Shown here piece by piece: positions 17,820 through 63,188 of a stretch of 64,000 nt of DNA. Each line of letters begins with the position of its first letter. Within the stretch, counting starts at the first letter, position 1. A program made the translations under genes and the position numbers. Origin of the DNA: Patescibacteria group bacterium (lineage in GTDB: Bacteria; Patescibacteriota; Patescibacteriia; Patescibacteriales; GWC2-42-12); assembly GCA_028707005.1 (NCBI GenBank), contig JAQTVB010000001.1, forward strand, positions 755-64,754. The letters run 5' to 3'. The notes beneath the pieces are model-generated. The model had not been told where the DNA came from. It saw only the letters and a list, made by a program, of their open reading frames with translations, and searched no databases.

Positions 17820-17821
17820 TT

Positions 17822-18625: not shown

Positions 18626-18640
18626 CATTATCTATAACTT

Positions 18641-18817: not shown

Positions 18818-18845
18818 TTTTCTTTTTATTTTATGTCCTCTAAAA

Positions 18846-18875
18846 ATCCCGCCGGTCTCCGGCGGGATTTTTTTA
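18846..18875 (+). terminator. Rho-independent terminator after rpmB (atcccgccggtctccggcgggat + T7); A-run upstream makes it bidirectional
   Basis: 10-bp GC stem plus T-run. Confidence 0.85.
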
Positions 18876-18959
18876 TCTGTATCTTAGGCTGGAAACTTTT
18901 TTTCCTGACTTTTTCCTGTGCTTTTTCCAAGCCATTTTTTTCTTTTTGTTCATATGATT

Positions 18960-44799: not shown

Positions 44800-45330
44800 C
44801 CGTTTTTTATCTCTAAAAATAAAGGTGAAAAGAATAAAAAAAATAATGCAAGGCACTATTGCCGTTCCCCAGAACGACAATTGATATAAAATTAATATGA
44901 TCCATGAATTTGGTAATTTCGCGGCCGAAGACATGAATGAAACAGGTATTATAAATGTACCTATCCCAACCAGTGTTAAAGCACTCACCCGTTTTAGCCA
45001 TAATAAAGATAGCTTGTCTTTTGTAAGTTCAAAAAATATATATATAACAAAATAGATAGCGATGACAATACTATAAGAAAGTACGATATTATCTGATTTT
45101 GTCTTATCATAAATATTAAAAAAATTATACATTACACCCGAAAAAAACATAGCAACTACTATGACAAATTGAATTCTGTTTTCAATTTCCTTGATGATAG
45201 TTTTTTTGTCAATATTTTCGTTACTCATAGTATTCCTTAACTTTACCATTCTTAAACCAATTTTTCAACTTCGCTAAAACACAAAAACACCGTCCCCTCC
45301 TAAACGGTGTTTTGCGTTTTATAAAAAAGG

Positions 45331-47189: not shown

Positions 47190-47204
47190 ATTTGAGAATT
47201 ACGA

Positions 47205-47228
47205 ATTACCTGCCTGCCAGACAGGCAG
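47205..47228. promoter_or_regulatory. GC palindrome cctgcctgccagacaggcagg about 20 nt upstream of ftsZ start codon
   Basis: Same CCTGCC/GGCAGG arms as sites at 18607 and 22551. Confidence 0.4.
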
Positions 47229-47442
47229 GCGAATTATGAATCTCTAATTTTCTCACCCCATGATTCATTATTCCTGTTTATATCTTAACCTATACTTAAA
47301 AATATAGCAAGTGGTTTGATTCTACCGACTTTTCCACAGGGTGTATAAATCTTTTATACACCTGGCTTTTGCCCCCTTGATAAAGGGGGTTAGGGGGATT
47401 TTATTTTGTCATTTCCGCGCAGGCGGGAATCCAAAATTTATT

Positions 47443-48141
47443 TTACTTCTGCCCTTTTATTTTTTCCAATCTCTCGACAATATTCTTTAAGTCATTAACA
47501 TCTTGATTACTATATTTTCCTTTATTATATTTAAATTTATTGAGGATAGCTTCTACCTTATCAAAAATATTATTTAAAATAGTAGAATCCAGATTACATT
47601 TATTGTCAGTATAAAGGTAACTCATGGCTTTCCTAAACCTATCTAAGAGCTCGCCCATTTCCTCGTTTTGTTTAAACTTAGAATAGTCGTGATATTGATC
47701 ATTAACCAGGCTTAGTATATAACTGTATCGATATCTGTCACGCTCATATTCATCCTCTAACATACTCCATCTTTTTGGATGTCTTAATTTTCTTAATACT
47801 CTAGCTTCGATCTCTAATATACGTCCCTTGTTGGTCCCGATATCTTTTGCAATTTCTTCAGGTGTTTCTCCTAAGAAGAATCTTCGCCTTATTACCTCTT
47901 TTTCTTTTTCGCTTGATAAAGTTTCAATCATTATTTCCAGTTCTTCGCGTAGTAACGAATCTTCCGAAACATCTCTCCTGTCTAATTTGGCCCGCCGTTG
48001 CATTTCTCTAAATGCTTCTTTTTCTTTTTCCGACACCCTGTCCTCTCTTTTTATTGGTTCGATCTCTTCGCCTTCAACCGCTATCTCTCCTTCACTGCCC
48101 AACACTTCTTCCTCCTTTGGCATAGTTTCAAACTTCGGCAT
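47443..48141 (-). CDS. Hypothetical protein with sigma-70 region-4-like HTH (RRFFLGETPEEIAKDIGTNKGRILEIEARVLRKLRHP), acidic N-terminus, ~100-aa C-terminal domain; located between ftsA and ftsZ
   Basis: Region 4.2-like motif recognised by eye; no regions 2 or 3. Confidence 0.6.
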   Translation of the reverse strand: MPKFETMPKEEEVLGSEGEIAVEGEEIEPIKREDRVSEKEKEAFREMQRRAKLDRRDVSEDSLLREELEIMIETLSSEKEKEVIRRRFFLGETPEEIAKDIGTNKGRILEIEARVLRKLRHPKRWSMLEDEYERDRYRYSYILSLVNDQYHDYSKFKQNEEMGELLDRFRKAMSYLYTDNKCNLDSTILNNIFDKVEAILNKFKYNKGKYSNQDVNDLKNIVERLEKIKGQK

Positions 48142-48267
48142 AACATTATTTTTAAACCTCCTCTTAATCCCCTCTTTCGTAAGGAGGGGGCCTTAAATCC
48201 CCGCTCGGCTAACGCCTCGCCGCCCCTTTATTAAAGGGGCCTTAAATCATGATTCATGATTCATTCT

Positions 48268-49533
48268 TCACGGTATCAGCGAACTAAACCACTTCTTAAC
48301 TTTTTCCACAGTCTGGCCTACCGCGCCGCCGAGCCGCCAATTAATCTTTGAACCTGATTTATGCCCGGACAATTGATTGCCCCAGGCTAGAAGCCCCAAG
48401 GCGGTCAAATAATCTATGTCATTCACTTTATCAATGGCCGAAGAGACATTATTGTTAGCGCCTAAACAAGCGGGCAGGCGCAAACGATTTTTCGCGGTTT
48501 CCACAATATCATTAAGCTTAGCGCCGCCGCCGATTAAAAATACTCCGGCCGGGAGCATACCCGAGCGGTCTATCTTTTTCAATTCATCGTCAATTTTATC
48601 AAAAATTTCTTCCACCCGCGCCTCAATGATTTCCGCCACGTATTTTTTGGAAATTATCATTTTTTCGTCAGCCATGTTTTCTTCTCTGGCCAGATCGGAA
48701 ATATCCACCTCGTCCTTCTTGGTAAATTTATCTCCCCGGGAAGATCCGTATTCCAGCTTGATCCGCTCCGCCAAATTAATCGGGCATCTTAAGCCGATCG
48801 CCACATCGGAAGTAATGTGCTCGGAGCCGATAGGAATGACCGCGGCATGGAGCAATTCGCCTTCTTCAAAAACGGCCAAGCTGGTAGTGGCGGCGCCGAT
48901 ATTGATTAAAGCCGCGCCCAATTCTTTCTGCTTCGGGGAAATTACCACTTCAGCGGCGGCCAAAGGCGATAAAACCAAATCATTGATTTCCAGGCCGGTG
49001 CGATAAATCGCCTTGGTCAAATTCTTTATCTGGCTGGAAAATCCCTGAATAATCAAAGTTTCAACTTCCAGCCTTACGCCGGTCATGCCGATCGGGTCTT
49101 TGATATCCGCCTGGTTATCCACGTTAAACTTAACCGGAATGACATGGAGAATTTCGTAATTTGGCGGCACGGATAAAGCCTGCGCCGCTTCCACGGCGCG
49201 GTTGACATCGTCTTCGGTAATTTCATTATCGCTCCGGCCGACTGCTACCACGCCATGGCTTTTTTCGCACTTCAAATTCGGGCCGTTGATGCCGACCCAG
49301 ACATTATTCAAAGGCACGCCGATCAGTCTTTCGGCTTTTTCCAGGCAGGCGGAAATGGCCGAGGTGGCGTCTTCAATGCTATTGACCGAACCGCGGTTAA
49401 TCCCTTCGGCCGGGGCGGTAACCGCGCCTAAAATATGCAATTGTTCACCGGTTTCACCGGCCGCTCTTTGGCCGACTGCCAGTCTGATGGCTGTTGAGCC
49501 GATGTCTAAACCGGCGATGATGTTATCTTTCAT
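48268..49533 (-). CDS. ftsA: Cell division protein FtsA
   Basis: GLDIGSTAIRLAV actin-fold phosphate-1 motif; 421 aa. Confidence 0.95.
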   Translation of the reverse strand: MKDNIIAGLDIGSTAIRLAVGQRAAGETGEQLHILGAVTAPAEGINRGSVNSIEDATSAISACLEKAERLIGVPLNNVWVGINGPNLKCEKSHGVVAVGRSDNEITEDDVNRAVEAAQALSVPPNYEILHVIPVKFNVDNQADIKDPIGMTGVRLEVETLIIQGFSSQIKNLTKAIYRTGLEINDLVLSPLAAAEVVISPKQKELGAALINIGAATTSLAVFEEGELLHAAVIPIGSEHITSDVAIGLRCPINLAERIKLEYGSSRGDKFTKKDEVDISDLAREENMADEKMIISKKYVAEIIEARVEEIFDKIDDELKKIDRSGMLPAGVFLIGGGAKLNDIVETAKNRLRLPACLGANNNVSSAIDKVNDIDYLTALGLLAWGNQLSGHKSGSKINWRLGGAVGQTVEKVKKWFSSLIP

Positions 49534-49649
49534 AAGTAATGCAAATTACGAATTTTTTACAAATTTACAAATATTTTTGTCATCTTATTTACTTTATTTG
49601 TAAATTTGTGACAGATTTGTAATTCGTATTGTTATTATACTAAAATTAT

Positions 49650-50039
49650 TTAAAACTGTCCAAATAATTTATACGCCTGCGGCCAAAAAATGATCAGGCC
49701 GATGATTAGCGCGCCCAGCGATGATAGTAAAACCGCGGCCGCCATAATATCTTTAATCTCTTTTACGTAAGTATTGATCCTCGGTTTTAAGACGTCGGTA
49801 ATCCTTTCCACCGCGCTGTTGGCGGTTTCCGCGACCAGCACCAGCGCGATTGCCAGAACGAGCAAAGCCCAGCTCACCGGGTCAATCTTAAAATAAATCC
49901 CGAAAATTACGACCACCAGGCTTAGGCTCGCCTGGATTTTTAAATTTTGCTCTTCATGAAAAATTTTTAACAAGCCCTTAAAAGCATAGCTAAAACTTCT
50001 CACCAGCCTGCCAATTCTTATCATAAATTTATTCAACAA
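49650..50039 (-). CDS. dgkA: Diacylglycerol kinase / undecaprenol kinase family (DgkA)
   Basis: 3 TM, ETANSAVERI motif; 129 aa. Confidence 0.75.
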   Translation of the reverse strand: MLNKFMIRIGRLVRSFSYAFKGLLKIFHEEQNLKIQASLSLVVVIFGIYFKIDPVSWALLVLAIALVLVAETANSAVERITDVLKPRINTYVKEIKDIMAAAVLLSSLGALIIGLIIFWPQAYKLFGQF

Positions 50040-50042
50040 TTT

Positions 50043-50474
50043 TTAATTACAAAATTTTAAATTCTCCATAAACTGCTCCCCCATCTCCATCATCTTCTGT
50101 CTGTCTTTTTCCGTTTCATCGTCATATCCCAGCAAATGCAGCAGCCCATGGACCAGGATAAAAATCAACTCCTCGCGAGCAGAATTGCCGAATTGACCGG
50201 CTTGCCTTTTTATCTGGTCGTAGTCGATTATCAGCTCGCCCCAAAGCTCGCCTTCTCCGGCAAAAGACAGGATGTCGGTCGGTTCGCTTTTATCGCGATA
50301 TATCCGGTTCAACTTTTTAATTTCCGCGTCGCTTACAAAAGCAATGGACAGTTCTTCGCCTTTAACTTGATATTCCGCAACAAATTTATTTACCAGCCCT
50401 TTAATAAAGCTTGAATTAATCTTTTTCTTGGTCCGATTGTTAATCTCAATTCTCATGTATTTCCCGTTATTCAT
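50043..50474 (-). CDS. ybeY: Endoribonuclease YbeY
   Basis: HGLLHLLGYDDE H3xH5xH metal site. Confidence 0.9.
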   Translation of the reverse strand: MNNGKYMRIEINNRTKKKINSSFIKGLVNKFVAEYQVKGEELSIAFVSDAEIKKLNRIYRDKSEPTDILSFAGEGELWGELIIDYDQIKRQAGQFGNSAREELIFILVHGLLHLLGYDDETEKDRQKMMEMGEQFMENLKFCN

Positions 50475-50480
50475 TATTCA

Positions 50481-51509
50481 TTACTGTTTTAAGGTAAAAG
50501 ACTTAACCATCATGTTGAAAATATCAATGTAATCAAGGATATTGTTCTCGCCGGGATTATAGGTAATGGTAAAAATATAATTTTGCCCCGCATCCATTAA
50601 GTAAGCGGTCAAGCCGTCTAAATTTTTTATCCCCTGCCAGCCCGCTCCGGCCAAGCGGTCGGCGTCATTAATGACGCTAACCCCCAGTTGGTCCAAATAC
50701 CACTGGTCAAGCGTTGCTTTAGCCTCATTAGCTTGGACAATAATCCCGAAAAATTGGTTGTCATCGGTTTTAAACATTATTGAATCGTCCCCACCGCTCA
50801 AACTCATCTGCCAGGCGCTGGGATACAACACGATATATTTATAGGTATTGTTTTCATAAAGCGAAATCGCGGGATTATCAATTAATTTGCCCGAGCCGGC
50901 CGGATTATATAAATTCATCACTTCGTCTCCGTCTAAATAACTGTCACCATCCGTATCCGGAGAAGAAGTGGCCGTGCCCAATAAAAATTCTTCCGCGTTA
51001 GCCAGGCCGTCCGCGTCGCTATCAAGCGCAGGGATCAAGCCAATTGACGTTTCCGGCTCAACCGTTTCCAGAGTGCTCGTGGCCGTCGTTGATGTAGCCG
51101 CTGTTTCTTCTGTCGATAAGGCGGCTGTTTCGGTTGAGGTGGTTGCCAGGTCGGTTTGATTTTGTTCCGCTTCAGCCGCGTTTTCAGCCGGCGGGTTGGT
51201 TTCAACCGCCGTAAGCTCCGTCTTAACGGTAACGGCCGGCTCTTTTAATAAATAGAAATACAAACCAGCCGAAACCGCGGCCAAAAATAACACGCCGCCG
51301 CCGACAATCATCAAACCGGCGGTTTTGGCGCTGTCGGCTTTTATCGGTTTATGGCGAAAACGCTCCGGCATGGTATGAATGGCAATATTGTCTATCTGAA
51401 TCTGTTTTTCTTTCACCGGCTCGGCCGCGGCCAATTCCTCGCCAGCCGGCTGTTCCGCCGGCTTTTTCTTAAAAAAACTTAAGGGGTTAAACATAATATT
51501 GATTTTCAA
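50481..51509 (-). CDS. Membrane-anchored protein with TSP3-like Ca-binding repeats (DSDADGLANAEE...DTDGDSYLDGDEV) and C-terminal beta domain
   Basis: TM near N-terminus; DxDxDG repeats. Confidence 0.55.
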   Translation of the reverse strand: MKINIMFNPLSFFKKKPAEQPAGEELAAAEPVKEKQIQIDNIAIHTMPERFRHKPIKADSAKTAGLMIVGGGVLFLAAVSAGLYFYLLKEPAVTVKTELTAVETNPPAENAAEAEQNQTDLATTSTETAALSTEETAATSTTATSTLETVEPETSIGLIPALDSDADGLANAEEFLLGTATSSPDTDGDSYLDGDEVMNLYNPAGSGKLIDNPAISLYENNTYKYIVLYPSAWQMSLSGGDDSIMFKTDDNQFFGIIVQANEAKATLDQWYLDQLGVSVINDADRLAGAGWQGIKNLDGLTAYLMDAGQNYIFTITYNPGENNILDYIDIFNMMVKSFTLKQ

Positions 51510-51520
51510 ATTCCATAGTA

Positions 51521-52231
51521 TTATTTAATTTCCAATAATTTTCCCGCCCCCTTGGGATTATAGCCGTTTTTGACTTCGTCGCCATCCTTATAGCCGTCGC
51601 CGTCAGTATCGGGGATTAGAGGATCGGTATTGTAAACTTTGGTTTCTTCCCGATCGGTTAAACCATCCTGGTCAGTATCCGCATCGGTAACGCTGGTGCC
51701 ATAAGCGGCTTCTTCTTCATCGGTTAAGCCGTCGCCGTCAGTATCCTGGGGTTCGGTTATAACCTGCTCCACCGGTTCAATCGGGGCCGTATTCGCCTCC
51801 TCGGCTGACGGCGAAGTTGCCTGGTTGGTTTCACCGCCGCTTGTCTGTTCTTCCACTATCGTGCTATCAGCCGCCTGCTTGCCGCCGAACGCCAGCTTCA
51901 AGCCGAAATAGCCTCCGGCAATGACCACGACCACGCCGCCAAACAATAAGCCAAACACCAGCATTTTATTGCTTCTCCAGCCCACGGCCGGCGGCACTAC
52001 GGTGCCGCGCGGCGGCTCGCCGGCTGGCCGAGAGCGGAAAACTTCTGGTTTGGCGGTTTTATCCATTTCGGCAAAAATGTCTTCAGCTTTGACCGGCCCG
52101 GCTCCGGCGCCGTTCTTAACTCCAGCCGCGTTTTCCGGGACTGGCCTTACGGGCGCCTGGCTCAACGGCCTGGCGCCAGACTGCGGCATCGCTTGATTGC
52201 GCTCATCCACTTTGTCTAATTCGTCAAACAT
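51521..52231 (-). CDS. Membrane-anchored protein with three TSP3-like DTDGDG repeats
   Basis: TM plus DTDGDGLTDEEE / DTDQDGLTDREE / DTDGDGYKDGDE. Confidence 0.55.
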   Translation of the reverse strand: MFDELDKVDERNQAMPQSGARPLSQAPVRPVPENAAGVKNGAGAGPVKAEDIFAEMDKTAKPEVFRSRPAGEPPRGTVVPPAVGWRSNKMLVFGLLFGGVVVVIAGGYFGLKLAFGGKQAADSTIVEEQTSGGETNQATSPSAEEANTAPIEPVEQVITEPQDTDGDGLTDEEEAAYGTSVTDADTDQDGLTDREETKVYNTDPLIPDTDGDGYKDGDEVKNGYNPKGAGKLLEIK

Positions 52232-52251
52232 AAATTTATTTTATGAATAAT

Positions 52252-55200
52252 TTATCTTTCATCAGGCATCGCTTGATTTGCGTTCAGGCTATCGGCCGTT
52301 GCCGCTGTTCCTTGTATGCGGCCGCTTTCATTGCCTTGAGCGTCCAAAGCGGAAACCGCAAAATAATAGGTAGTGCCTGAAGCCAAACCGGTGATAGCGG
52401 TGCTGCAAAGAGCGTTAGAACATTTACTCTTATCCACCTTAACCGACGCGCCGGGAATGACCGCTCCACTGCCGTCGCGGCTGGCGCCATAATATACTTT
52501 ATAGCTTACCGTATCGTCAATGTTGGGCGCCCAGGCAACCGTTGTCTGGTTTGAGCCGACCGTAACCGACAAATCTCGCGGCGTGGCCGGAGCCAAAGTA
52601 TCGGCCGGCGTGGTGCTGGCCTCATTGGAGTAACCGCTTTCTATGGCCTTGTTATTATACGCGGTAACGGCAAAGTAATAAACTTGTCCATTAACCAGGC
52701 CGGTCACTGTATAATTAGTCGCCGCGCTCTTAATATCAATGTTTTTATTATATTGGCCGCTGGCCGTGCCATAATATAATTTATAGCCGGCAGCCGATCT
52801 GGCCGGATTCCATGAAGCGCTTACTTTCCCGCCCGCCCGCAAGGCATTGACGCTTAATCCGCTGGCTACGTCCGGCGCAACACCTCTAAAAAAATATAAT
52901 TCTTTTACAATATCATCCGCCGCTGAAGCGCCGCGAATGATTGCGCTTTCCGACAGCGCCGGCAAATCATCGGCTGTGCCGGCTTCACCGGCATCGCGGC
53001 AGTAATGCAATGAAAAATTGGTGTTATAGCAATCGCCTCCGCCGGCGGCGCAATTTCCGGCCAGGTCTGTCCATGGCGCCCAAGTGCCGTCAGCCTTAAC
53101 CACCGGCCAGGGGTTATCGCACAAAAATACGTAAATTTCCGCCTGGCCTTCTTTAACCGCGCCTTTGGTTCCCATCACCGAGTCTTCGGCGATGGTCGCT
53201 TTGGCGTCAAGCAACGTGCTGGCATCTTTAATATTCTGCGCCACAATCACCACGTTATCGGTTGCGTTTTCTCCGGCTTTAAACTTAACCACCGTTTGAT
53301 CCTCGATCGCCCAGCTCCACTCCCAGCTATACAAACCCGCGATCGAACTAAGCGCCTGCCCGTCCGCGGAGTAGCCGGTCGCCCGAAAAATTTTATCGCT
53401 ATCCTGGACGGTATCGTAATCCGCGTTCTGGCTGTTATCATCTTTAGTATCATTAACGCTGGTCTTGAATAAATAGCTCGCCGGATTAACCGCTACCGAA
53501 GCCAAGCGGCAAATCCCGCTGTCAACGTCAGAACTCTCTTTAGTGGTGAAATACCAAATTTTCGCGTTTTTAAAGTTTTGACCGTTGAAAACCGCCGGAT
53601 TTTCATAGGCGTCGCCGCCCAGAGGCGCGCCAACGCTATTCATACCCACGCCGCTCGCGGCCAGCACGCCTTCTTTGATCGCGTCGGACGTGTCCGCGTC
53701 TCCCTTAATGATCACATAATATCTTCTGCCGGCATCCAGCATTTTTCTCAATTTATATTCTACCACGGTTTTATTGGCAATATTATAGCCATCAACCGCT
53801 CCCGGAACAACGCAATAATTTCCATTTAAAGCCAAAGCTTCTTGAGCAAAAAGTTTATTTACTAAAGGCGCCTTAGCCAGCCAGGCTTTAATCCTGCCCG
53901 CCAAACTGGGCCGATACGCGGCGGTTAAATAGGTGGTGCCGGACGGGCAGGGGTCGGCGCCGTAAGATCCGGCCACCATAATATTATTCGCGAAAGAATC
54001 CGGCCGCATATACTGGTTAAAAGTGGCTTGAATCAGAGCGTTGCGGCAGATGCCGGGCCCCATGGGCTTGGCGCTCTCCACGCTCGGCCGGGCATGGCAG
54101 CAGGCATCGGCGCCGCAGCCGGTCGTGGCCGCGCTGCCGCAGTCGCCATCCTTCGTACAGCCGCAACACAGTCCGCGCTTATCGCCGGAGCAGGGTGATT
54201 GGTTGGCTTTACAGGTTAACAACGTATTGATGGCCGTACATTTATCCGGATTAGCCGCCGGATCGCAGCAGCAAGTGCCGCAGTCATTAGGCGGATTCTG
54301 CGGCCCCGTGCCATCCTCATTCAAGCAGTTAAAGCCGGTGCAGATATCAGTATCGCATCGTGGTTGGGTCGTAGAATAATTAAAGCAGGTTTGGCCAAAG
54401 GCCGGCGGCAAAGTACAGCTGGCGCTGCAGCCGGCCGCAGTCCGATAGCTGGGCAAAGTCGTTTTGTAAATCGCCGAACCGCAAGTAGCGGTGCTGTTAT
54501 CGCAAGGATAATATGAACAATAAGCGTTAGTGTCGCCGCTTACGCCGGAGGAAACCGTTTCCGTGCCGCCGCGGCAAGCATTGCCGCCCATGGCGTCAAC
54601 GCAGCAGGTGCCGACGCCAAGCTTGGTGCAGTTGCCGCTGCCGCTAAGCCCCGAGCAGTCCTGGCAAATGCCGTCACCGCCCGCGCCGGCAGTATCGCAG
54701 AATTTACCGCTGGCGTTTTTGCAATTGCAAGCGCGGTTGCTGGCCGCTTGATTAACTGTGCCGCCAATTTTTACCGTACAGCCGGTGCAATAACCCAAAG
54801 TATTGGTATCGGCATTTCTGTCGCTGCCGCAATTGCCTTGGCATTTTAAAGGATAACAGCAGTCTTGCGCCGAATAGTCGAGGCGGCAGCAGCATTCGCA
54901 AGCTCCGGCGCTGGCTTTCTGGCATTTGCCGCTTACACAGCTGGCGCCGCTCGCGCAGACATTTTTGTCAATCAGGCATTGTTTAGCCTGACAAATTGAG
55001 CCGCTGGGGCATACGTTCAGTTCGCAGACAGAGGCATCGCCCGCCTGACCGCCGGCTCTGATGATGCTGCACCAGCCATTAGCGTCTAAAAAAGTTCCGC
55101 CCGGACAAGGGTTGCCGCCGGAATTAATCTGCAAAATTTTCGTGCTATAACCGCTTACGGTCCGGCATTGCTGTTCGGCAAAGACGATGTCGTCAAATTG

Positions 55201-58200
55201 GATTTTCTCATTTTCCGTCTGCCGGTAATTTACCAGTAAAACCAGCTTAACGTATTTTGTACCCATTCTAAAAGCATTAGGACCATTGCCAAAGCTTTGT
55301 CCGGTGATGCCGCCGCGGTTATAAGCTAAATTCTCCCATTCCCAGGGAACGGCGGAATTTACGGCCGCGGCATATAAATAAGTATTGCCGCCATAATGAT
55401 TTTTCACAACAACCTTTGCGCCAGGTTTATTGATTTCATCAAGCACCTGCTGGGGCAAAGCATGATTTAAATTAATAACTTTACTGCCGTTAATGCCGGT
55501 GCCGTTATAAGCGCCTCGATTGAGTTCAACGGAGTTGAAACAGCTGGAATTGGCCGGGTTGGTCGTGCCGCAAGGCGTAGGATACCAGGAAAAAACATAA
55601 TCAACTCTATGGCTGGTATCGCCGTCATAATAGAAACCCAGGCTTCTAACGCCGGCCACGGTTGTCTGGTCGTTCCAGCCGCTGATGGCTTCCTTAACAA
55701 CGATCTGGGTATCAGAAACGCTCGCAATCGTAGCGTCGCTACCCTTCCTTAAGACTTCTTCAGCGCTGATTAATTTTTGATTTTCATCATACGGCGCCAG
55801 GCCGAAATACAGTCTTGATTTGAATGGCACGCAGCTTTCTCCGTTCGCGGCATCGCAGATATTAGCATCGTTAGTGCAAGTTTTATAGGCTGAATTGGCA
55901 ATCACTTCCGTGCCATTCTTCACGCAGACTTTGCCCGTGCCGGCTGATTTGAATCTGCCAAAAATATAATAGGTGGTATTTATATTAATGGGCACAAAAT
56001 CAGTGGAAAAAAGGTTGTGGAATCCGTTTTGCGCGTATATTTTATTAGAGCCTTCGGCAACGATGCCGATTTTAAAATTAGAAGCCGGCTCGGTGTCAAA
56101 ATCGCTGGCGGCATCCGGCTCTTCGGCGTCAAATTTCATTGACTCGCTGGCCGCCAAATCATCGCACGTCCTATCTTTCAGCCTGCATTTATTCAAAGTT
56201 TGATCATAAACGCATTGACCACTGCCGCAAATCACCGGATAGGCGGCATGGCAATAATCATCGCCGCAATCCCCGGCCGCTGTTAAGCCGCCGGCGTATG
56301 ACGAGCACAAGCCCAGCGAATTCGGGCAGTAATAGCCGCCCGCGCATTGGTTGCCATAACCGGCGCAGGAATCTGGAGCAGTGCAGACGGTTGGAGTGGC
56401 GGAATTATTATCAGTATCTCTGCAATAAGAATTATCTTTGCAACATGAGCCATCGCCGCATTGGGCGGGCGAATTGGCGGGACAATCATCACACGTTCCA
56501 TCGTAATTGCATTCACCGACACTGCAGCATCTAAAGGTAGCGCCGACAGCAAGCGGGTTGGGAATATTGCATTTTTCCTGATTGACGCAATCTTTCGGCT
56601 GGCAAATACAGCTTGCGGTATCGCAGTATGTGGTGGCATGATCGCATTGATCTTTATTAATATCGCAACTGCCGGCTTTGCCATCTTTATAGCAAGGACC
56701 GCCGGCAAGCGATTTGCAGATACACTCATCAGTATTGCAAACGGAAATCGCCAGATCGCACTGGTTGTCATCGCTACTGCAATCGCCGGCCACGCCATCC
56801 TGATAGCAAGGATCGCCGATAGCCGGATGCTCCGCGCAGGTGCAAGACCTGGGCTGGCAAACCAAACCCGCGGCTTCGCACCTGGATTGACTGGCGTCGC
56901 AAGTTCCGCTTACCGCGCCGTTATAGCAAGGATCGCCCACGCTGGGCAGATAAGTCGTGCTGAAAGTCCATTGATAGACGCTGGACTTATATTGAGGAAA
57001 GCAAACATCTTGTTCTGTTTTTCCTCCGGTTGTGCTTTTGCATTGCCCGGCGTAGGGCGTGCCGGTTGAACAGCACAGGCTGTCCGCGCCGCAATCGCCG
57101 GTTTGTTTGCAGATGCCAACGGTAAAATTCAGGCCATTGCCGACCGCTTCCTTGCTCACGCCATGATCTATTAAAGTTTTAACGGCGCGCACCGGACCGG
57201 TTACCGCTTGCTGATGCACCGTGGTTTCGGCTTTGTCCGGCTTGGGATTGCCTTGAGCCTCGGTGTCAATTCCCCAAAAAGCAATCGCGCTGCCGGATTG
57301 ATTATGATTAAGCTGAAATCTAACCTGGCTATTCGCGTCTTGATCGCCAAAATACTCGCCCCATAAACTTACCTGGCTATTCCTTTGCCCCATGATCGGG
57401 TCAAGCTTGCATAAGCTGGGCGCGAGCGGCAGGGTTGAATCGGCTGTAAATGCCGCCGGGCTCAAATCACTGCTATCTATTTCCCAAAATTGGCCGCCGC
57501 TTTTGGCGATTTTCATGTAAATTACATAATCTCCATTAGCCAGTCCGGCCGGCGCTTTGACGATCACCTGCTTGTCGCTCCAGACTGAATCAGCGCAAAC
57601 TTCCGGAAAAGTATAACTGGCTTTTTTGTCGTTAAGCGCGGGGCCGAAATAAATTTCGCTAGTTCCTTTAGCGGCGCCAAAACCTTGGCCGCGGATGGTA
57701 ATATATTGCCCGGCCGCGCCTTGAACCGGATCAAAAGAGGAAATCAGCGGACCGGCATAAGGCTCGGCGGTTTTCTGAAACTCCAAATAATTACTTAAAA
57801 CTTTTTTAGCTTCATCAGCCACAAAGCTGGTGGTTTTGCCGGTTTGAATATTAGGCACTTGGGCAGCTCCCTGCTTGCCTCTCACATCTGTGAATACTGA
57901 ACTTAAGGCCGTGGTGCTGGCCGACCAATCGCCAAAATAAGCTTGATTGTCTTTAGTCAATCCGACTCCGCCATAAGTAATAGTATCATTCATTTTCCCG
58001 CTCGCCGGCGCCAGCTGGCACAATCCGGGCCGGGCGATCGTATTAATCAAAAAATCATCCAGGCGCGGATTAGTAAGGCTGTCATCGGAAAAACCGCTGG
58101 CCGCTTCCACTTTAATCGGCCCGGTAGCCGCGCCAACCGGCACTATCGCGATAATCTGCGTGTCGCTCCAGACATGAGCGCATTGGCTGTTGCCCGCGCC

Positions 58201-60015
58201 CGCGTCGTTGGCTAATTTAGCTTCCTGCCAAAAATTACAAGTGCCTGGAGTAAAAGCATCGCAATCGTCATTTGATCGACAGGATATTTTAATATGCCCA
58301 TCGCATTTTCCCTGGCCGCTTTTAAAATAGACTTTGCCCGCTTGAGCGCCGAAATATTTGCCGATGATGGTCACAAAATTTCCGGCCGCGCCGTTAGGCG
58401 TAGTCTGGCCGCATTTTACCGAGCCACCGCAATCGCTATCAGCCAAGCAGGCTTTATTAACATCATTTTCGCAAAAACCGCCGGCCGGAAAAATTCCGGT
58501 GATCACCGGCAGGCGTTGGCATAGGCAGCAATTGGCCACGCCCGCGCCATAGCCGCCGGCCGCGCAAGCCGCTTGATTTGAATTTTGCGCCGTGCAAAAT
58601 TGGGAGGCGCACAAGCTATTATTGCAGGTAGCCGGAACGGATAAATCATTGGCGCAAGCCTGTCCGTCGCAGGCGCCGCACTCTCCGCCGCAATCCACAT
58701 CGGCTTCATCCAAATCTTTAATGCCGTTGCAGCAATGGCCCGGCCTGATCTTTGCGGTAAAACTGTCTTCAGCCGGCTGGTTGGCCACGTCATGAGCTTT
58801 AATTTTAAAAATATAGTTGTCGCCCGCCTTCATGGCCGTGGTGTCGTAGACGTGCTCGGCTGACTGATAGGTCTTGCCATTGCCGGCGATCTGCTTGGCC
58901 ATCGTTTCCGCGCCGTCTTGTTTTTGCTGATAAAAAACCAAATCTGCAATGCCAAGATCATCTCGGCCCCAGCCGGTGACGGTATTGGCGCCCGCCTTCA
59001 TGGCAACTCCGGCTTCAGTCTGGCAGATCTGCGCCGGCACGATGCCGGCTTCAGGGCCGGCCGTATCAATTAAATTGCCGGTGGAAAACACGAATTCGCA
59101 GGGCGCGTTAAAACCGCAGCTCAAGCTCTGGCCGCCGGCCGAAATGATGCCGCTCAAACCGTTGATCTTTACTTTAAATTTGCTCCAGGCCGGAAAACAG
59201 CCCAGCGTATTTTTTTCATCCCCGCAAGCCGTGGTGGTGGCATAGCTCATGGCCCAGCGGCCGTTGACAAAGTCTCTCATGCCACCCATGTCCAGCGCCT
59301 CGCCCAAAGCAGTGATATTTTGAGAATTGGCCGGATCAATATCGGCTATTTTCTCCATTTTAAAATTATTGTCCAAAATCTGCTGGGTAATATTTTCGGC
59401 CGCCACGCCATTAAAAAAGGCTTTAACCGTTACGTTGCGCGCTACATTTATGTCCTGGTCGCCCGGCCTGGTGGCGGTTAAGCCAAAAGCGCCGCCGCCA
59501 TAAGGCGTGCCGCAAGGACCGGCTTGACAGGAACTATTGCAACAATACTGGCCGGCTGAACAGGCCGGGTTGCAGATCGTGCCGTCGCCTTGGCCGCCGG
59601 TCGTCGCGCCAAGCAAACTATTTAAAATAAAGCTGGCGATCGCGAAAGAAGCCAAAATAATAATCAGGCCGATCACCGCGCCGGTTAAAATCTTTTTGGC
59701 TTTTTCTATTTTATCCGCCTCGCCCCCGGCCGTCATCCACAGCCAGCCGGCGTAAATTATCAAACCGACCGCGATGATGCCTAAGAATCCCAGCGCTATC
59801 CTGATAATATTAGCCACCACGACTCTGGGATCGGTCGCCGACAAGCCGGTGCCGGCGGCGTAGTTTAAGCCCGTGTCAACCGCCGCCATGGCAAAATGAG
59901 CCGAAGCGAACAAGGCGATCAGCAGGCAAGCGATGAAAACTAGTTTTTTTATTATTTTAAAATTATACATTGCATTGTCATTGCGAGGATCCGCCAGCTG
60001 GCGGAGACGAAGCAA
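52252..60015 (-). CDS. Giant (2587 aa) surface protein: N-terminal VirB2/TrbC-like (T4SS pilin-type) two-TM domain, then ~2000 aa of extremely Cys-rich repeats, then fibronectin type III domains
   Basis: Uninterrupted 7.8-kb ORF; N-domain ...DPRVVVANIIRIALGFLGIIAVGLIIYAGWLWMTAGGEADKIEKAKKILTGAVIGLIIILASFAIASFILN; C-terminal YKLYYGTASGQY...YYFAVTAYN FN3. Confidence 0.8.
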   Translation of the reverse strand: MLRLRQLADPRNDNAMYNFKIIKKLVFIACLLIALFASAHFAMAAVDTGLNYAAGTGLSATDPRVVVANIIRIALGFLGIIAVGLIIYAGWLWMTAGGEADKIEKAKKILTGAVIGLIIILASFAIASFILNSLLGATTGGQGDGTICNPACSAGQYCCNSSCQAGPCGTPYGGGAFGLTATRPGDQDINVARNVTVKAFFNGVAAENITQQILDNNFKMEKIADIDPANSQNITALGEALDMGGMRDFVNGRWAMSYATTTACGDEKNTLGCFPAWSKFKVKINGLSGIISAGGQSLSCGFNAPCEFVFSTGNLIDTAGPEAGIVPAQICQTEAGVAMKAGANTVTGWGRDDLGIADLVFYQQKQDGAETMAKQIAGNGKTYQSAEHVYDTTAMKAGDNYIFKIKAHDVANQPAEDSFTAKIRPGHCCNGIKDLDEADVDCGGECGACDGQACANDLSVPATCNNSLCASQFCTAQNSNQAACAAGGYGAGVANCCLCQRLPVITGIFPAGGFCENDVNKACLADSDCGGSVKCGQTTPNGAAGNFVTIIGKYFGAQAGKVYFKSGQGKCDGHIKISCRSNDDCDAFTPGTCNFWQEAKLANDAGAGNSQCAHVWSDTQIIAIVPVGAATGPIKVEAASGFSDDSLTNPRLDDFLINTIARPGLCQLAPASGKMNDTITYGGVGLTKDNQAYFGDWSASTTALSSVFTDVRGKQGAAQVPNIQTGKTTSFVADEAKKVLSNYLEFQKTAEPYAGPLISSFDPVQGAAGQYITIRGQGFGAAKGTSEIYFGPALNDKKASYTFPEVCADSVWSDKQVIVKAPAGLANGDYVIYMKIAKSGGQFWEIDSSDLSPAAFTADSTLPLAPSLCKLDPIMGQRNSQVSLWGEYFGDQDANSQVRFQLNHNQSGSAIAFWGIDTEAQGNPKPDKAETTVHQQAVTGPVRAVKTLIDHGVSKEAVGNGLNFTVGICKQTGDCGADSLCCSTGTPYAGQCKSTTGGKTEQDVCFPQYKSSVYQWTFSTTYLPSVGDPCYNGAVSGTCDASQSRCEAAGLVCQPRSCTCAEHPAIGDPCYQDGVAGDCSSDDNQCDLAISVCNTDECICKSLAGGPCYKDGKAGSCDINKDQCDHATTYCDTASCICQPKDCVNQEKCNIPNPLAVGATFRCCSVGECNYDGTCDDCPANSPAQCGDGSCCKDNSYCRDTDNNSATPTVCTAPDSCAGYGNQCAGGYYCPNSLGLCSSYAGGLTAAGDCGDDYCHAAYPVICGSGQCVYDQTLNKCRLKDRTCDDLAASESMKFDAEEPDAASDFDTEPASNFKIGIVAEGSNKIYAQNGFHNLFSTDFVPININTTYYIFGRFKSAGTGKVCVKNGTEVIANSAYKTCTNDANICDAANGESCVPFKSRLYFGLAPYDENQKLISAEEVLRKGSDATIASVSDTQIVVKEAISGWNDQTTVAGVRSLGFYYDGDTSHRVDYVFSWYPTPCGTTNPANSSCFNSVELNRGAYNGTGINGSKVINLNHALPQQVLDEINKPGAKVVVKNHYGGNTYLYAAAVNSAVPWEWENLAYNRGGITGQSFGNGPNAFRMGTKYVKLVLLVNYRQTENEKIQFDDIVFAEQQCRTVSGYSTKILQINSGGNPCPGGTFLDANGWCSIIRAGGQAGDASVCELNVCPSGSICQAKQCLIDKNVCASGASCVSGKCQKASAGACECCCRLDYSAQDCCYPLKCQGNCGSDRNADTNTLGYCTGCTVKIGGTVNQAASNRACNCKNASGKFCDTAGAGGDGICQDCSGLSGSGNCTKLGVGTCCVDAMGGNACRGGTETVSSGVSGDTNAYCSYYPCDNSTATCGSAIYKTTLPSYRTAAGCSASCTLPPAFGQTCFNYSTTQPRCDTDICTGFNCLNEDGTGPQNPPNDCGTCCCDPAANPDKCTAINTLLTCKANQSPCSGDKRGLCCGCTKDGDCGSAATTGCGADACCHARPSVESAKPMGPGICRNALIQATFNQYMRPDSFANNIMVAGSYGADPCPSGTTYLTAAYRPSLAGRIKAWLAKAPLVNKLFAQEALALNGNYCVVPGAVDGYNIANKTVVEYKLRKMLDAGRRYYVIIKGDADTSDAIKEGVLAASGVGMNSVGAPLGGDAYENPAVFNGQNFKNAKIWYFTTKESSDVDSGICRLASVAVNPASYLFKTSVNDTKDDNSQNADYDTVQDSDKIFRATGYSADGQALSSIAGLYSWEWSWAIEDQTVVKFKAGENATDNVVIVAQNIKDASTLLDAKATIAEDSVMGTKGAVKEGQAEIYVFLCDNPWPVVKADGTWAPWTDLAGNCAAGGGDCYNTNFSLHYCRDAGEAGTADDLPALSESAIIRGASAADDIVKELYFFRGVAPDVASGLSVNALRAGGKVSASWNPARSAAGYKLYYGTASGQYNKNIDIKSAATNYTVTGLVNGQVYYFAVTAYNNKAIESGYSNEASTTPADTLAPATPRDLSVTVGSNQTTVAWAPNIDDTVSYKVYYGASRDGSGAVIPGASVKVDKSKCSNALCSTAITGLASGTTYYFAVSALDAQGNESGRIQGTAATADSLNANQAMPDER

Positions 60016-60306
60016 TCTCTGGTTAGAAACGCTTTACATGTCTAGCGCTAAATATCTTTGTTTTCCTTGTTTTTATACTGGTCGTTTCTGTTTAACAGAT
60101 TATCGGTTACTCCAACGTAAAATACATTATGCGATTTATTAGTGTTTATGTATACAAAATAGTATTTCTCATAAATCATATTCGTTCTAACTTACCAGAG
60201 ATTGCCGCGTCGTCGCTAACGCTCCTCCTCGCAATGACATACAAGAAAAGATTGTCGTATCATCCAACCTCGGTTGTTTTAACTAGGGCTGGCTTCGGGA
60301 ATGACA
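59975..60306. mobile_element. Composite MITE-like element in the spacer between the two giant genes: ttgtcattgcgagga ... tcctcgcaatgacat inverted termini, AT-rich 230-bp core, extra half-site cgggaatgacaa
   Basis: Inverted repeats at 59975-59989 and 60224-60240; family similarity. Confidence 0.5.
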
Positions 60307-60314
60307 AAAATGGT

Positions 60315-63188
60315 TTATTCGCAAACTCCTTTAGCCCTGCCGTTGCAGCAGGACGGCTTATTGTCGCTCACCGCTTGAGCGCCCGAACAGGCCGGACCGG
60401 CGCCGGGCTTATAGCAATTTTGATAGACATCTTTTAAGCCTGAACCGGCTTGCGCCTGATAACTGGCGGCACCGCTAAAATTGCTGTGGTTGATGAAAAC
60501 ATCGCTTTCTTCATACTCGCCGTCTTTAGGCTCTTTATCAAAACCCTTGCCGGTCACCCAATATGCCAAAGGCGCCTGGGCAAGAGCGTTTAAATTAAGC
60601 AGTTGATGGACAATTTGCTCCTCGCCGTTAACCACCGTGACACTGCCCGTGGTCAATCTGGAAGACATCATTAATTTGTCAAAATGCATTTGCACTGAAT
60701 TGGACAAGCCGACATTATCGGCCGGGTAAGCCGGAACGGTTTGAGTTGCTTTCGGGCTGGTAATATCTAAAAGGTCGCTGATGAAAAACGACCAGCGGAA
60801 ACTATCGCCGTTGTTCTGGGCCGCAGTTAACGCCACGGCGCCGGTGCAGTTAACGCCAGAACCGCAAACCGTTTCTTCATCATTTAAACTGCATTGCCGA
60901 TTGTTGCCGTTCGCGCATAAGCCGTAAAGATCATTTTCATTATAATAACTTACCGGTCCTTGAGCGAGAATGTCGCGATTGCCGTCCAGAGAATTCATGG
61001 CCATGTCCACTATGCCGTCCACGATATTCGGTTTGGTCATATCAGCCTGCGGATAATTTTTTCCATTAGCGTCTTGGCAAATTTTCTCGGCTGAATCGCA
61101 AAGATTAAAAGGCGCTTTGCTGGCGCAGTCAAGATTAGCGGCACAAGCGGCAAAATTGGCCGCGGCCAATTCCACCTTTAAGCGGCTATTGGCCGGCAGG
61201 CAATAAATTTTTTCCCCGCAAGCGTTAAAACCGCATTCATTATCAGAAATAAAATTAACCGTGCGGTACTGGTTGGAAATTTCAAATTTTCCGCCCAAAG
61301 AATTGCCGGCGCATTTATTGCTCACGCATTTATAGGATTTGCATTCCGCGTCAGCGCTGCAGGCCGCGTCTCCTGCTTTGGCGGCCGCGGCATTATTGAC
61401 TACTCTAATATAATTTTCCACTTCGGTATTGGCTCCGGAAACCGTTAAAGGCATGACCGCCTCGTTAAAATCAAGCTGAATGGTCGCGTTCATGGGCTTA
61501 TCGCCCCGCCCCTTAACAATCTTAGCTGTTTGCTTATCCGCGCCGCGAGCCGCCGCCGCTATGGTTAGGGCGTCGGGATTGCTGGTCTTTAATTCAATAT
61601 TATTACCATCCGTTCCGGCTACTGCGGCTGTTATAGTTACGATTTTAGCTAAACTCGTTGCCGTTACTTCGTTATTGCCGCTCAACGCTATTTTGATATT
61701 AGCCGCGGTGGCTCCAATACCACTTCCCAAACTAATTTGCCCCGCTCCGGCAGCTCCGGCCACAAAAGTGTAAACCGTGTTGCCCACGGTTAAAGTGTCG
61801 GCCGTGATCGCCCTGGATACCGTTATATTCCAGCCGTTGCCGGCCGTAAAACTGCCGGTGGCGCTATTTAAAGTTAAAAGCAAATTGCATTCGCCGAAAG
61901 CAATGGTTTTTTGTCCCGCGCTGTTTTGTCCAAAAACGCCCTGGCCTAACATCGTGGCGCCAGGGGAAGGTGAAGAATAAAGTATGGCAACTAATCCGCC
62001 GTTATCAGCCAAACTAACATTTAAAGTGCCGTCCTGTTGGCAGTTGGCATTGATGATCGTGCTAGCGGCTGGCGTGTCACTTTGCGGATCGGACTTGACC
62101 GTGCTTGCCACTCGCGCATCGCGCCCAGCTAGCGGCTGTTCGCTTACCGTGATTGTCCATCGCGCTGGCACCGCCTGGCCGGAAGTATTGGCAGCGTCCT
62201 GGCTCACGTCCGGCGCCGGAAAAATTCCGCTTGACTCCACTTGCGGCGGAGTTAAGTCAATCTTATTGCTCACTTCAAAACTCCATTCATAATCATTGCC
62301 GAACGAGCCAAAGGCTTTTTTACCATCAGCTTTTAAAATATCATTCCCCAGATACACGGCATAATTTATATACTCGGCGGGCGAACCTAAATAGGTGTCC
62401 GGCATGAAGACAAAGGTTTTATTATTGGTGGTGGAATAAACTTTAGCGCTTACAGTCGGGCAGGTGCCGATAGCCGTACCTAAACATTTGAGCTCATCCG
62501 CTAGTTTAAATATTCTAACGTTATTATTGGCAATCGCTCCGCCGTTACATTTTGGAGTTGGAGGAGTTGTTGAATTATCTGTACCTACCGGATCGCAAAG
62601 CGTATCCAGTTGCATCGCTTCCCTGAAAGTCACGATAATACTGGTGTTGCGCGGCACGTCTTTTTGCCCGCGCGCCGGATAATGCGATTCTATGATGCCG
62701 TTGCCCAAAGCCGAAATGCCGCCGCCGCTCGGGCCGCCGCCAGCCGGATTATTAGCGCCGCCGCTGGTTGAATTCGTAAGCATATTTAAAATGAAAGTGG
62801 CGATAGCGAATGACGCGAAAATAATAATCAAGCCGATGACCGCGTTTTTTAAAATGTTCTTGGCCTGTTCTATTTTCTCTTCATTGCCATTACTGGTCAT
62901 CCAGATAAAACCGGCGTAAATAATCAAGCTCACGGCAATGATGCCCAAAAACCCCAGGGCTATTCTGATAATGTTGGCAATAATAACTCTCGGATCAGTG
63001 TTGGACAAACCGGTAGCCTCCACGTAGTTCAATCCCAGGTTAGGTTCGGCCGCCAGCGTAAAGTTCGCCAACAAAAAAATAGCCGTTGTCGCGATAAACA
63101 AATAGACAGCTACTTTTAAATTTTTGGAGTATTTTGAAAATGAAAGCATGGGGAAAAAATTGAAATTTATATTCTTTGACTTTTGCAC
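60315..63188 (-). CDS. Paralogous surface protein (957 aa) with the same VirB2/TrbC-like N-terminal domain (~75% aa identity to the 52252-60015 N-domain) and a Cys-containing beta-rich ectodomain
   Basis: N-domain ...DPRVIIANIIRIALGFLGIIAVSLIIYAGFIWMTSNGNEEKIEQAKNILKNAVIGLIIIFASFAIATFILN; DNA about 80% identical to 59640-59900. Confidence 0.8.
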   Translation of the reverse strand: MQKSKNINFNFFPMLSFSKYSKNLKVAVYLFIATTAIFLLANFTLAAEPNLGLNYVEATGLSNTDPRVIIANIIRIALGFLGIIAVSLIIYAGFIWMTSNGNEEKIEQAKNILKNAVIGLIIIFASFAIATFILNMLTNSTSGGANNPAGGGPSGGGISALGNGIIESHYPARGQKDVPRNTSIIVTFREAMQLDTLCDPVGTDNSTTPPTPKCNGGAIANNNVRIFKLADELKCLGTAIGTCPTVSAKVYSTTNNKTFVFMPDTYLGSPAEYINYAVYLGNDILKADGKKAFGSFGNDYEWSFEVSNKIDLTPPQVESSGIFPAPDVSQDAANTSGQAVPARWTITVSEQPLAGRDARVASTVKSDPQSDTPAASTIINANCQQDGTLNVSLADNGGLVAILYSSPSPGATMLGQGVFGQNSAGQKTIAFGECNLLLTLNSATGSFTAGNGWNITVSRAITADTLTVGNTVYTFVAGAAGAGQISLGSGIGATAANIKIALSGNNEVTATSLAKIVTITAAVAGTDGNNIELKTSNPDALTIAAAARGADKQTAKIVKGRGDKPMNATIQLDFNEAVMPLTVSGANTEVENYIRVVNNAAAAKAGDAACSADAECKSYKCVSNKCAGNSLGGKFEISNQYRTVNFISDNECGFNACGEKIYCLPANSRLKVELAAANFAACAANLDCASKAPFNLCDSAEKICQDANGKNYPQADMTKPNIVDGIVDMAMNSLDGNRDILAQGPVSYYNENDLYGLCANGNNRQCSLNDEETVCGSGVNCTGAVALTAAQNNGDSFRWSFFISDLLDITSPKATQTVPAYPADNVGLSNSVQMHFDKLMMSSRLTTGSVTVVNGEEQIVHQLLNLNALAQAPLAYWVTGKGFDKEPKDGEYEESDVFINHSNFSGAASYQAQAGSGLKDVYQNCYKPGAGPACSGAQAVSDNKPSCCNGRAKGVCE

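Follow-up and report, generated by a model that had tools for sequence, protein, structure and literature searches.

A tandem pair of large predicted surface proteins with VirB2-like pilin modules in ABY1/Falkowbacteria-type Patescibacteria

The subject of this study is a pair of adjacent genes, here called M and G, in a 64,000-nucleotide stretch of DNA (the window) from a Patescibacteria group bacterium (GenBank assembly GCA_028707005.1, contig JAQTVB010000001.1, positions 755 to 64,754 of the forward strand). Both genes encode large predicted surface proteins, and, by profile and motif comparison, the N-terminal module of ~90 residues that the two proteins have in common is a sequence relative of the VirB2/TrbC-like pilins of type IV secretion systems (T4SSs). 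The interpretation that we develop below, and in which our confidence is about evenly divided, treats the two proteins as constitutive "modular VirB2-like pilins" that are anchored by a hairpin. Their modules would pack together, and probably with free pilins as well, and the two genes, along with those for a TSP3 protein and for a protein called X, would make up a four-gene module of the envelope of ABY1/Falkowbacteria-type Patescibacteria.

M and G share an N-terminal module related to VirB2/TrbC-like pilins

The window is a stretch of core genome, with genes for ribosomal proteins, EF-Tu, EF-G, ComEC, NrdD, FtsZ and FtsA, and nearly all of its genes lie on the minus strand. The initial annotation had described a neighbouring pair of minus-strand genes of 2587 and 957 aa, and both open reading frames (ORFs) were recovered, as longest frames at 52252-60015 (2587 aa, TTG start) and 60315-63188 (957 aa, GTG start). 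The annotated starts are internal ATGs, at 59970 for G (2572 aa) and at 63149 for M (944 aa), and the resulting proteins match NCBI entries exactly. The NCBI product name of G is "fibronectin type III domain-containing protein" and that of M is "hypothetical protein", and a few orthologues of M are already named "pilin" at NCBI.

Both proteins begin with the same arrangement of a hydrophobic signal peptide, a conserved segment (D-x-GLNYAxGTGLSxTDPRV), and two strongly hydrophobic helices, which are separated by a charged, K-rich loop of 10-16 residues (WMT-x-G-x3-KIE-x-AK-x-IL). The loop sequences of the G and M hairpins are TAGGEADKIEKAKKIL and TSNGNEEKIEQAKNIL, respectively. Hydropathy peaks fall at residues 10-28, 55-73 and 98-116 of G, and at residues 13-31, 55-73 and 103-121 of M. 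In the AlphaFold2 (AF2) model, the signal-peptide region of M contains a hydrophobic helix (residues 8-27), and helices 53-84 and 90-128 form an antiparallel hairpin, modelled with a predicted local distance difference test score (pLDDT) above 90, with a disordered Gly-rich linker next to it. A D/N-x-GL motif directly after the predicted cleavage site was conserved across 48 sequences. The topology is thus predicted to be that of a signal peptide plus two transmembrane (TM) helices, and not that of a signal peptide plus one, and, taken together with membership in a pilin profile family, this bears out the VirB2/TrbC layout that had been proposed for the region.

The family assignment comes from Pfam T4SS_pilin (PF18895), for which the curated cut-off is 26.6 bits. 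M passes this cut-off, scoring 36.4 bits over its full length and 39.8 bits when the domain is searched by itself (aa 55-120, E=4.9e-10), and G falls just below it, so the profile search that the initial annotation had called for did yield a match. With the NCBIfam model for a pilin-like conjugal transfer protein (NF045849), M scored 37.4 bits (1.5e-9) and G scored 23.2 bits, both below the cut-off of 40, and a hidden Markov model of the module built here scored G at E=2.5e-43. All 91 close relatives of the module matched PF18895, and 42 of the 91 also matched the TrbC/VirB2 family (PF04956), with a best E of 1.4e-6; neither M nor G itself gave a direct significant match to PF04956.

Matches of this kind might be produced by hydrophobic composition, in which case the N-terminus would be an unrelated two-TM segment. 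Hydrophobic profiles do draw spurious matches, and unrelated membrane families (Cyt_bd_oxida_II, DctQ and others, with E of 1e-3 to 1e-4) were found among the relatives. Structure searches were non-specific as well, since thousands of generic helical hairpins matched the query hairpin, and no pilin stood out, so that fold comparison speaks neither for nor against pilin kinship. However, no spurious family was matched by more than 9 of the 91 relatives, compared with all 91 for PF18895, and the match of M (E=4.9e-10) exceeds the curated cut-off. The TrbC matches of the relatives and the NCBIfam score of M point in the same direction, as does a motif that is conserved in register with free pilins, and we consider an artefact hardly credible.

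The N-terminal domains of M and G are 62% identical over 121 aa and 77% identical over a 74-aa core. These values replace the figure of ~75% given by the initial annotation.

Distribution, age and co-variation of the pair

A search with the 131-residue module returned 34,765 cluster representatives at E<=1e-3, and the best 150 matches fell mostly into two size classes, of 570-1000 aa and 1500-2700 aa. Homologues of M number more than 480; they measure 830-1000 aa and can be aligned over ~99% of their length at 40-60% identity. For G, there are more than 300 homologues, 1500-2700 aa long, and most of them combine PF18895, Big_5, TIG and fn3. When each species was represented by a single genome, a relative of M was encoded in at least 517 species. 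The arrangement of relA/spoT (-), then M (+), then G (+) was present in ~70 of the 80 loci listed, and where the flank reaches far enough, the order continues with the TSP3 protein, X, ybeY, dgkA, ftsA and ftsZ; the six loci with precomputed Pfam annotation have the same order. The named records that bear the cluster are Falkowbacteria or Parcubacteria, and Table S1 of PMC12102498 lists six of these, each under the GTDB class ABY1. Many cluster-bearing records of metagenome-assembled genomes (L013, L014, L017, L020, L028 and others) bear the title "uncultured Gammaproteobacteria bacterium" or, in one case, "Bacillota bacterium"; such labels are evidently placeholders or wrong.

The two genes had initially been taken for the products of a recent duplication with diversification of the ectodomains, and the comparison across genomes contradicts this. 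Besides the presence of the tandem pair in most loci, in the set of 24 genomes from which M and G were both recovered on one contig, the nearest neighbour of the M module was another M in 23, and the nearest neighbour of the G module was likewise another G in 23. In the window itself, 44% of the identical residues in the M and G cores differ in codon. Since M clusters with M and G with G, and since codons have diverged, the duplication is older than the radiation of these species.

Mean identity of orthologues to the window proteins was 42% for M and 38% for G, compared with 47% for YbeY, 52% for DgkA, 71% for FtsA and 82% for FtsZ, and G is conserved along nearly its whole length, except for an insertion at ~1260-1640. 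As judged from these identities, the divergence of M and G is at a housekeeping level, about that of YbeY and DgkA, unlike that of a fast-changing adhesin. Conservation at this level, together with fixed synteny beside ftsA/ftsZ, speaks for a constitutive structure of the envelope and against an adhesin that varies with the host, and the four-gene module is housekeeping rather than fast-evolving in character.

These results bear on the proposal that the two genes arose by recent duplication and encode diversifying adhesins, arrayed along a conjugative-type pilus, which would serve in host attachment during episymbiosis. The proposal draws on the pilin-family N-terminal module, on the adhesin-type domains of the two proteins, and on surveys of Patescibacteria T4SSs that found no adhesin, and none resembling PrgB (PMC12102498). 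However, hundreds of species have diverged since the duplication, and the 1:1 orthologues are alignable over nearly their full length and evolve no faster than YbeY or DgkA, unlike host-range adhesins. The genes also lack linkage to T4SS genes, and we regard adhesins of this description as improbable.

Within M and within G, the pilin core is the best-conserved part, with ~65% identity between genomes, and the module retains, in register, residues that are near-invariant in free pilins of ~130 aa, including the loop motif G-x7-AK. The M and G cores of the same genome are 68.4% identical, compared with 61.4% under random pairing, and none of 10,000 permutations reached the within-genome value. 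For the mature N-terminal segment, the within-genome identity of M and G was 61%, compared with 44% under random pairing (0/10,000 permutations). Whole motifs switch jointly in M and G, with GLNYAxGTGLS in both or NMLWGGxEGNxQ in both, and IRWFIGF in one genome pair. An ancient duplication followed by independent evolution predicts that M and G should be equally alike within and between genomes, and the excess that was found suggests either co-evolving contact surfaces or old, partial gene conversion. Recent gene conversion was also considered as a source of the likeness of M and G, and was ruled out because most synonymous sites differ between the two, shared codons being only slightly in excess.

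Ectodomains, neighbouring genes and other features of the window

After the second TM helix, M continues for ~815 residues and G for ~2450 residues, made up of Big_5, TIG, fn3 and Cys-rich modules, and both ectodomains are predicted to be extracellular. M matches Pfam Big_5 with 33.3 bits, and its AF2 model (pLDDT 88) is all-beta after residue 150. G has a weak Big_5 match besides its TIG domain and two fn3 domains, and the fn3 domains lie at the C-terminus, as had been described for the larger protein. The extent of Cys-rich sequence in G had been put at ~2000 residues, which is an overestimate: of its 151 Cys, 122 lie within four blocks (131-200, 401-600, 951-1260 and 1641-1980), and these blocks together amount to ~920 aa. 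The sole clear internal repeat of G consists of three units of ~40 aa at 1012-1130. No Pfam or PDB match was obtained for the insertion at ~1260-1640. PDB sequence searches gave fn3 matches only for G, and the M profile gave 0 matches, while a Foldseek search of the whole M model against the PDB returned generic Ig-like matches only, with template-modelling scores (TM-scores) <=0.1.

The coordinates of M, G and the features discussed in this section are collected in Table 1. Over 52000-60000, the G gene has a GC content of 51-54%, compared with 39-48% in the rest of the window. This is attributable to a composition rich in Gly, Ala, Cys and Pro, and not to transfer, as the gene is syntenic in >70 genomes; horizontal transfer of G, an idea raised by the GC content, was ruled out on the same grounds.

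Table 1. Coordinates of M, G and neighbouring features in the window
Feature	Position	Strand	Description
Gene M	60315..63149	-	944-aa modular pilin-like surface protein: signal peptide, VirB2-like hairpin, Gly-rich linker, Big_5 Ig-like domain, all-beta ectodomain with Cys-rich C-terminus; from ORF and translation, exact NCBI protein (P0364), Pfam and AF2 model
M signal peptide	63048..63149	-	~aa 1-34; predicted cleavage after an A-x-A-type site, ...TLAA/EPN (cleavage predicted)
M pilin module	62766..63047	-	~aa 35-128; mature N-terminus, TM helix 1, charged loop, TM helix 2
Gene G	52252..59970	-	2572-aa giant modular pilin-like surface protein; from ORF and translation, exact NCBI protein (P0121)
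G pilin module	59605..59880	-	~aa 31-122; PF18895 22.4 bits; 77% identity to M core
IPT/TIG domain of G	57541..57750	-	aa 741-810; Pfam PF01833 39.1 bits, cut-off 20.9
Lineage-specific insertion in G	55051..56193	-	~aa 1260-1640; Cys-poor; common to 3-4% of 119 homologues (per-residue BLAST coverage)
Two C-terminal fn3 domains of G	52324..52878	-	~aa 2365-2549; Pfam fn3 56.7 bits, two stretches; PDB fn3 matches
Inverted-repeat element in M-G spacer	59976..60239	.	~264 nt; imperfect arms 59976-60026 and 60191-60239, AT-rich centre
TSP3 protein, third cluster gene	51521..52231	-	236 aa, single-pass; N-terminus cytoplasmic, TM 91-109, three TSP3 calcium-binding repeats outside
Gene X, fourth cluster gene	50481..51494	-	337 aa, single-pass; TM ~60-78; position conserved
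ybeY, dgkA, ftsA, ftsZ	46008..50474	-	conserved downstream neighbours; synteny anchor, outside the system; Pfam

No LPXTG-type sorting signal ([LN]PX[TSA][GA]) and no C-terminal TM helix was found in M or G, and neither protein matched N_methyl (PF07963) or a class III signal peptide, the N-terminus being of the Sec type. M and G might instead be precursors or substrates, in which the module is cleaved off, much as TrbC/TrhA pilins lose their C-terminal extensions, or acts as a T4SS targeting signal, and the ectodomain is released or delivered to the host. In favour of this, the second TM helix is followed by a disordered Gly-rich linker, and C-terminal processing of conjugative pilins is known, with five C-terminal residues being removed from the TrhA pilin (PMC12037004). 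However, no conserved cleavage motif was seen in the linker, which varies in length, and the known processing trims a few residues, not thousands. Moreover, the ectodomain would already be outside after Sec export, and a T4SS would not be needed for its release. Processing or delivery of this kind seems very unlikely to us.

The initial annotation also placed two TSP3-repeat membrane proteins (50481-52231) upstream of the pair. Both are membrane proteins and both belong to the same conserved cluster, but they are located downstream of G, and only the first has a significant TSP3 match (Pfam TSP3_bac, 61.7 bits). A TSP3 gene is at the same position in loci L002, L004, L006, L007 and L008, and in many of L009-L088. 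The X protein, which is called at 337 aa in locus L001, has its N-terminus inside. Its linker is rich in Thr and Ala, it contains DxDxDG motifs like those of TSP3, and its globular C-terminal domain matches no family; no Pfam match was obtained for it, and its orthologues match TSP3 weakly.

The order ybeY-dgkA-ftsA-ftsZ is kept in five of the six annotated loci and in every GTDB locus with a long enough flank. In the Falkowbacteria-type locus L008, clpP-secDF takes the place of the ybeY-ftsZ block, and an extra protein of 950 aa, with a faint He_PIG match, lies with two small ORFs between G and the TSP3 gene (16304-19156). On the other side of the pair, relA/spoT starts at ~63241 in the window, on the plus strand, and runs off the end. 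Just upstream of M in L002, L004, L007 and L008, a signal peptidase I (Peptidase_S26), histidyl-tRNA synthetase, a small ORF and a divergent relA/spoT recur.

The spacer between M and G (59971-60314) is 344 nt long in the window, compared with 4-35 nt in five other genomes. The inverted-repeat element that it contains has an RNA-folding z of -5.7 and ends 6 nt before the G start codon; it is probably an insertion resembling a miniature inverted-repeat transposable element, or a large hairpin, and probably not a functional part of the system. Promoter and terminator scans gave results at chance level, and no Rfam family was detected at threshold anywhere in the window.

Three further features of the window lie outside the cluster. 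A 783-aa protein encoded at 25820-28171 (-) combines CARDB, an fn3-like region and a TSP3 repeat, which makes it a further surface protein with TSP3 in the window, and adjoins ComEC (29642-31186). A 312-aa ORF at 44311-45249 (-) has a PF07963 prepilin motif in mid-ORF (154-176), reflecting a wrong start or an unusual N-terminal extension, and a DUF4349 protein adjoins it. At 12450-12527 (-), just upstream of the EF-Tu gene, ARAGORN reported a 78-nt tRNA without an assigned identity and with a four-base anticodon, "gcaa".

Relation to secretion systems and possible roles of the pair

Several observations weigh against the reading of M and G as modular VirB2-like pilins. No ORF in the window has the size expected of VirB4 or VirD4, in keeping with the absence of such genes reported at the outset, and the other ORFs of >=500 aa encode only the CARDB/TSP3 protein, EF-G, NrdD and ComEC. 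T4SS genes were likewise missing from the window as a whole and from the 10-kb flanks of the cluster in six loci annotated with Pfam, among them L002, L004, L006, L007 and L008. Taking the VirB4 and VirB2 status of genomes from Tables S1/S3 of PMC12102498, VirB4 is listed elsewhere in the genome for five of six M/G-bearing genomes (Table S1), which makes machinery elsewhere in the genome plausible, though at the background rate: this co-occurrence is no higher than that in the phylum, where 2,417 of 3,035 Patescibacteria assemblies (~80%) have VirB4 (PMC12102498). G alone is below threshold for PF18895 (E=1.3e-4; isolated domain E<=0.01), and a PDB sequence profile search with the 91 pilin modules returned spurious "Pizza" designer repeats, and Agrobacterium VirB2 at E=7.6 only. 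Shared codons at conserved residues of M and G (31/55, compared with 21.7 expected, p=0.008) leave room for gene conversion, and the co-variation of the two modules could come from old, partial gene conversion instead of physical contact. To our knowledge, pilus formation by Patescibacteria PF18895 proteins has nowhere yet been demonstrated. Finally, a T4SS-independent envelope layer fits the fixed cell-division synteny and the Ig-like/S-layer-type domains equally well.

M and G are the only pilin-module ORFs in the window, and free pilin genes were absent within 10 kb of the cluster in 85 loci. One M/G-bearing genome, GCA_000997945.1, has VirB4, TrsD, three type IV coupling protein (T4CP) matches and six VirB2 matches, and none of these six lies near virB4. 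In the Falkowbacteria-type locus L089 (8597-10917; also in L090), five stand-alone PF18895 pilins of 118-144 aa lie directly 3' of a solute-binding-protein gene, with no VirB4 within 10 kb.

The main alternative, which we hold to be possible though doubtful, is that the hairpin was recruited solely as a membrane anchor for S-layer-like (surface layer) or fibrillar proteins, and that M, G and the TSP3 proteins form a calcium-stabilised coat without a T4SS, a pilus or any free pilin. It is consistent with a cluster that is never beside T4SS genes and is fixed beside ybeY-dgkA-ftsA-ftsZ, with single-copy genes conserved at a housekeeping level, and with ectodomains that are chains of Ig-like beta-sandwiches (Big_5, TIG, fn3). 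The free pilin arrays of the clade likewise lie away from virB4, and M has a weak Foldseek match to an archaeal (Nitrosopumilus) S-layer protein. The combination of a medium and a giant protein also recalls the two-component archaeal S-layers, such as Sulfolobus SlaB/SlaA, in which a membrane-anchored stalk and a very large lattice protein are encoded together. S-layers (SlaB/SlaA, and SbsA-type with Big_5) resemble the cluster in having a tandem medium and giant beta-rich pair, Ig-like arrays, a constitutive expression context and calcium-binding partners. They differ in that no sequence match or reliable fold match to M or G was obtained, and in that M and G are both anchored in the membrane by a pilin-like hairpin. 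The Foldseek match had a probability of 0.09 and a TM-score <0.1, and no S-layer anchoring or lattice domain (SLH, CWB2 etc.) was found in M or G with Pfam and NCBIfam. Furthermore, a mere anchor should keep its hydrophobicity and not its sequence, whereas the hairpin is the most conserved part of both proteins, keeps G-x7-AK, and co-varies between M and G.

VirB2-like pilins, including arrays of 2-11 genes, have been described in Patescibacteria as small proteins (PMC10633639, PMC12102498, PMC12857230), and the pilin array in the T4SS locus of Southlakia epibionticum is essential (PMC10633639, PMC12102498). M and G resemble these free pilins of the same phylum in their PF18895 family, in a hairpin that is 45-60% identical, in the order signal peptide-TM1-G-x7-AK loop-TM2, and in the conserved residues. 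The free pilins are only ~120-150 aa long, with nothing after TM2, have a mean identity of 25% within arrays (PMC12102498), and are often encoded beside virB4. In contrast, M and G carry 800-2450 extra residues, are single-copy 1:1 orthologues with modules that are 60-77% identical, and are encoded in a housekeeping neighbourhood far from virB4. The classical pilins (VirB2/TrbC/TraA/TrhA, PF04956), which 42 of the 91 relatives match, likewise have a cleaved signal peptide, as predicted for M and G, and a helix-loop-helix with a positive loop. They differ in that they are small (mature ~70-120 aa), are encoded with virB3-B11 and belong to Gram-negative bacteria, whereas the host of M and G is monoderm. 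Some of them are C-terminally trimmed or cyclised, and a fusion at the C-terminus would preclude this.

In solved structures of conjugative pili, lipid is bound by the loop between the helices, which faces the lumen. The subunits are stacked in layers of five with a rise of ~12 Å, and the two termini of each pilin are neighbours, which in the cyclic H-pilin are linked through a peptide bond (PMC12037004). Provided that both termini are on the outer side, an extension at the C-terminus would project outward too, but 800-2450 residues could not be borne by every subunit; we infer that a filament of M or G alone is ruled out on steric grounds. The same geometry provides the adhesin proposal with the outward C-terminus that it needs, and also counts against it, as ectodomains of this size should not fit on each subunit at five per ~12 Å.

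The nearest functional precedent, though by analogy only, is offered by PilB and PilC of Streptococcus sanguinis, which are modular type IV pilins (PMC8179133, PMC9934059). Like M and G, they join an N-terminal pilin module, which in their case polymerises, to a C-terminal functional module, and they are low-abundance adhesive subunits with dedicated minor-pilin genes. They differ in forming type 4 filaments, which are an unrelated filament superfamily, in their class III signal peptide, and in having a single N-terminal helix. PrgB-type adhesins, in turn, resemble M and G as large surface proteins through which a monoderm T4SS could achieve contact between cells, and differ from them in that M and G have no LPXTG motif or C-terminal anchor, share no homology with PrgB, and lie outside a T4SS locus. 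No description of pilin modules fused to giant ectodomains, or of this four-gene cluster, was found in the literature, the coverage of which was incomplete.

Under the reading of M and G as modular VirB2-like pilins, both proteins would be exported via Sec, and the signal peptide would be removed. The module would then form a helix-loop-helix in the cytoplasmic membrane, its two ends on the outer side, as its predicted topology indicates, so placed that the Gly-rich linker and the beta-rich, disulfide-rich ectodomain would project from the cell. The hairpins may pack against each other, and probably also against free pilins, as the constraint and co-variation of the modules suggest. In this way, M and G might be paired minor subunits, or a cap/base complex, and tether a large surface structure to a pilin assembly, which could be a membrane oligomer or one end of a short VirB2-type filament made by a T4SS whose genes lie at another site. 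The TSP3 proteins, both of them single-pass, would be calcium-binding accessory parts. In a stronger version, which we offer tentatively and think less probable than not by a good measure, M and G would be the first modular pilins of the VirB2 class, and would co-evolve as partners in a heteromeric cap or base complex. This complex would nucleate or terminate the VirB2-like filament of Patescibacteria and bear ectodomains of 800-2450 aa.

We also observed "poly-pilin" proteins (P0241, P0243, P0255, P0278, P0294 and P0340), in which 4 to ~17 tandem PF18895-like hairpins are joined in one chain by linkers of ~40 residues. Their repeat motif is IYAGYLW-x-AGGNEE-x-V-x2-AK, and one chain of 1775 aa has 17 matched stretches; no description of such proteins was found.

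The T4SS of Patescibacteria is essential in the one species tested, lacks a relaxase, has unexpected VirB2-like pilins and, according to surveys, is not accompanied by an adhesin. ABY1/Falkowbacteria and their relatives (at least 517 species) carry a fixed pair of large surface proteins, the pilin module of which is their most conserved part and co-varies between the two. If these modules co-assemble with free pilins, M and G would be a concrete candidate for filament cargo and for host contact. If they do not, matches to T4SS_pilin would in part denote a membrane anchor, and counts of VirB2 based on PF18895 would over-estimate the number of pilus genes. In both cases there are consequences for the annotation of these genomes. 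Should the cap/base reading be true, the pair would supply the adhesin reported missing from the essential, relaxase-less T4SS of these episymbionts, conjugative-type pilins would be able to carry very large cargo, and the poly-pilin proteins would be covalently pre-assembled filament segments.

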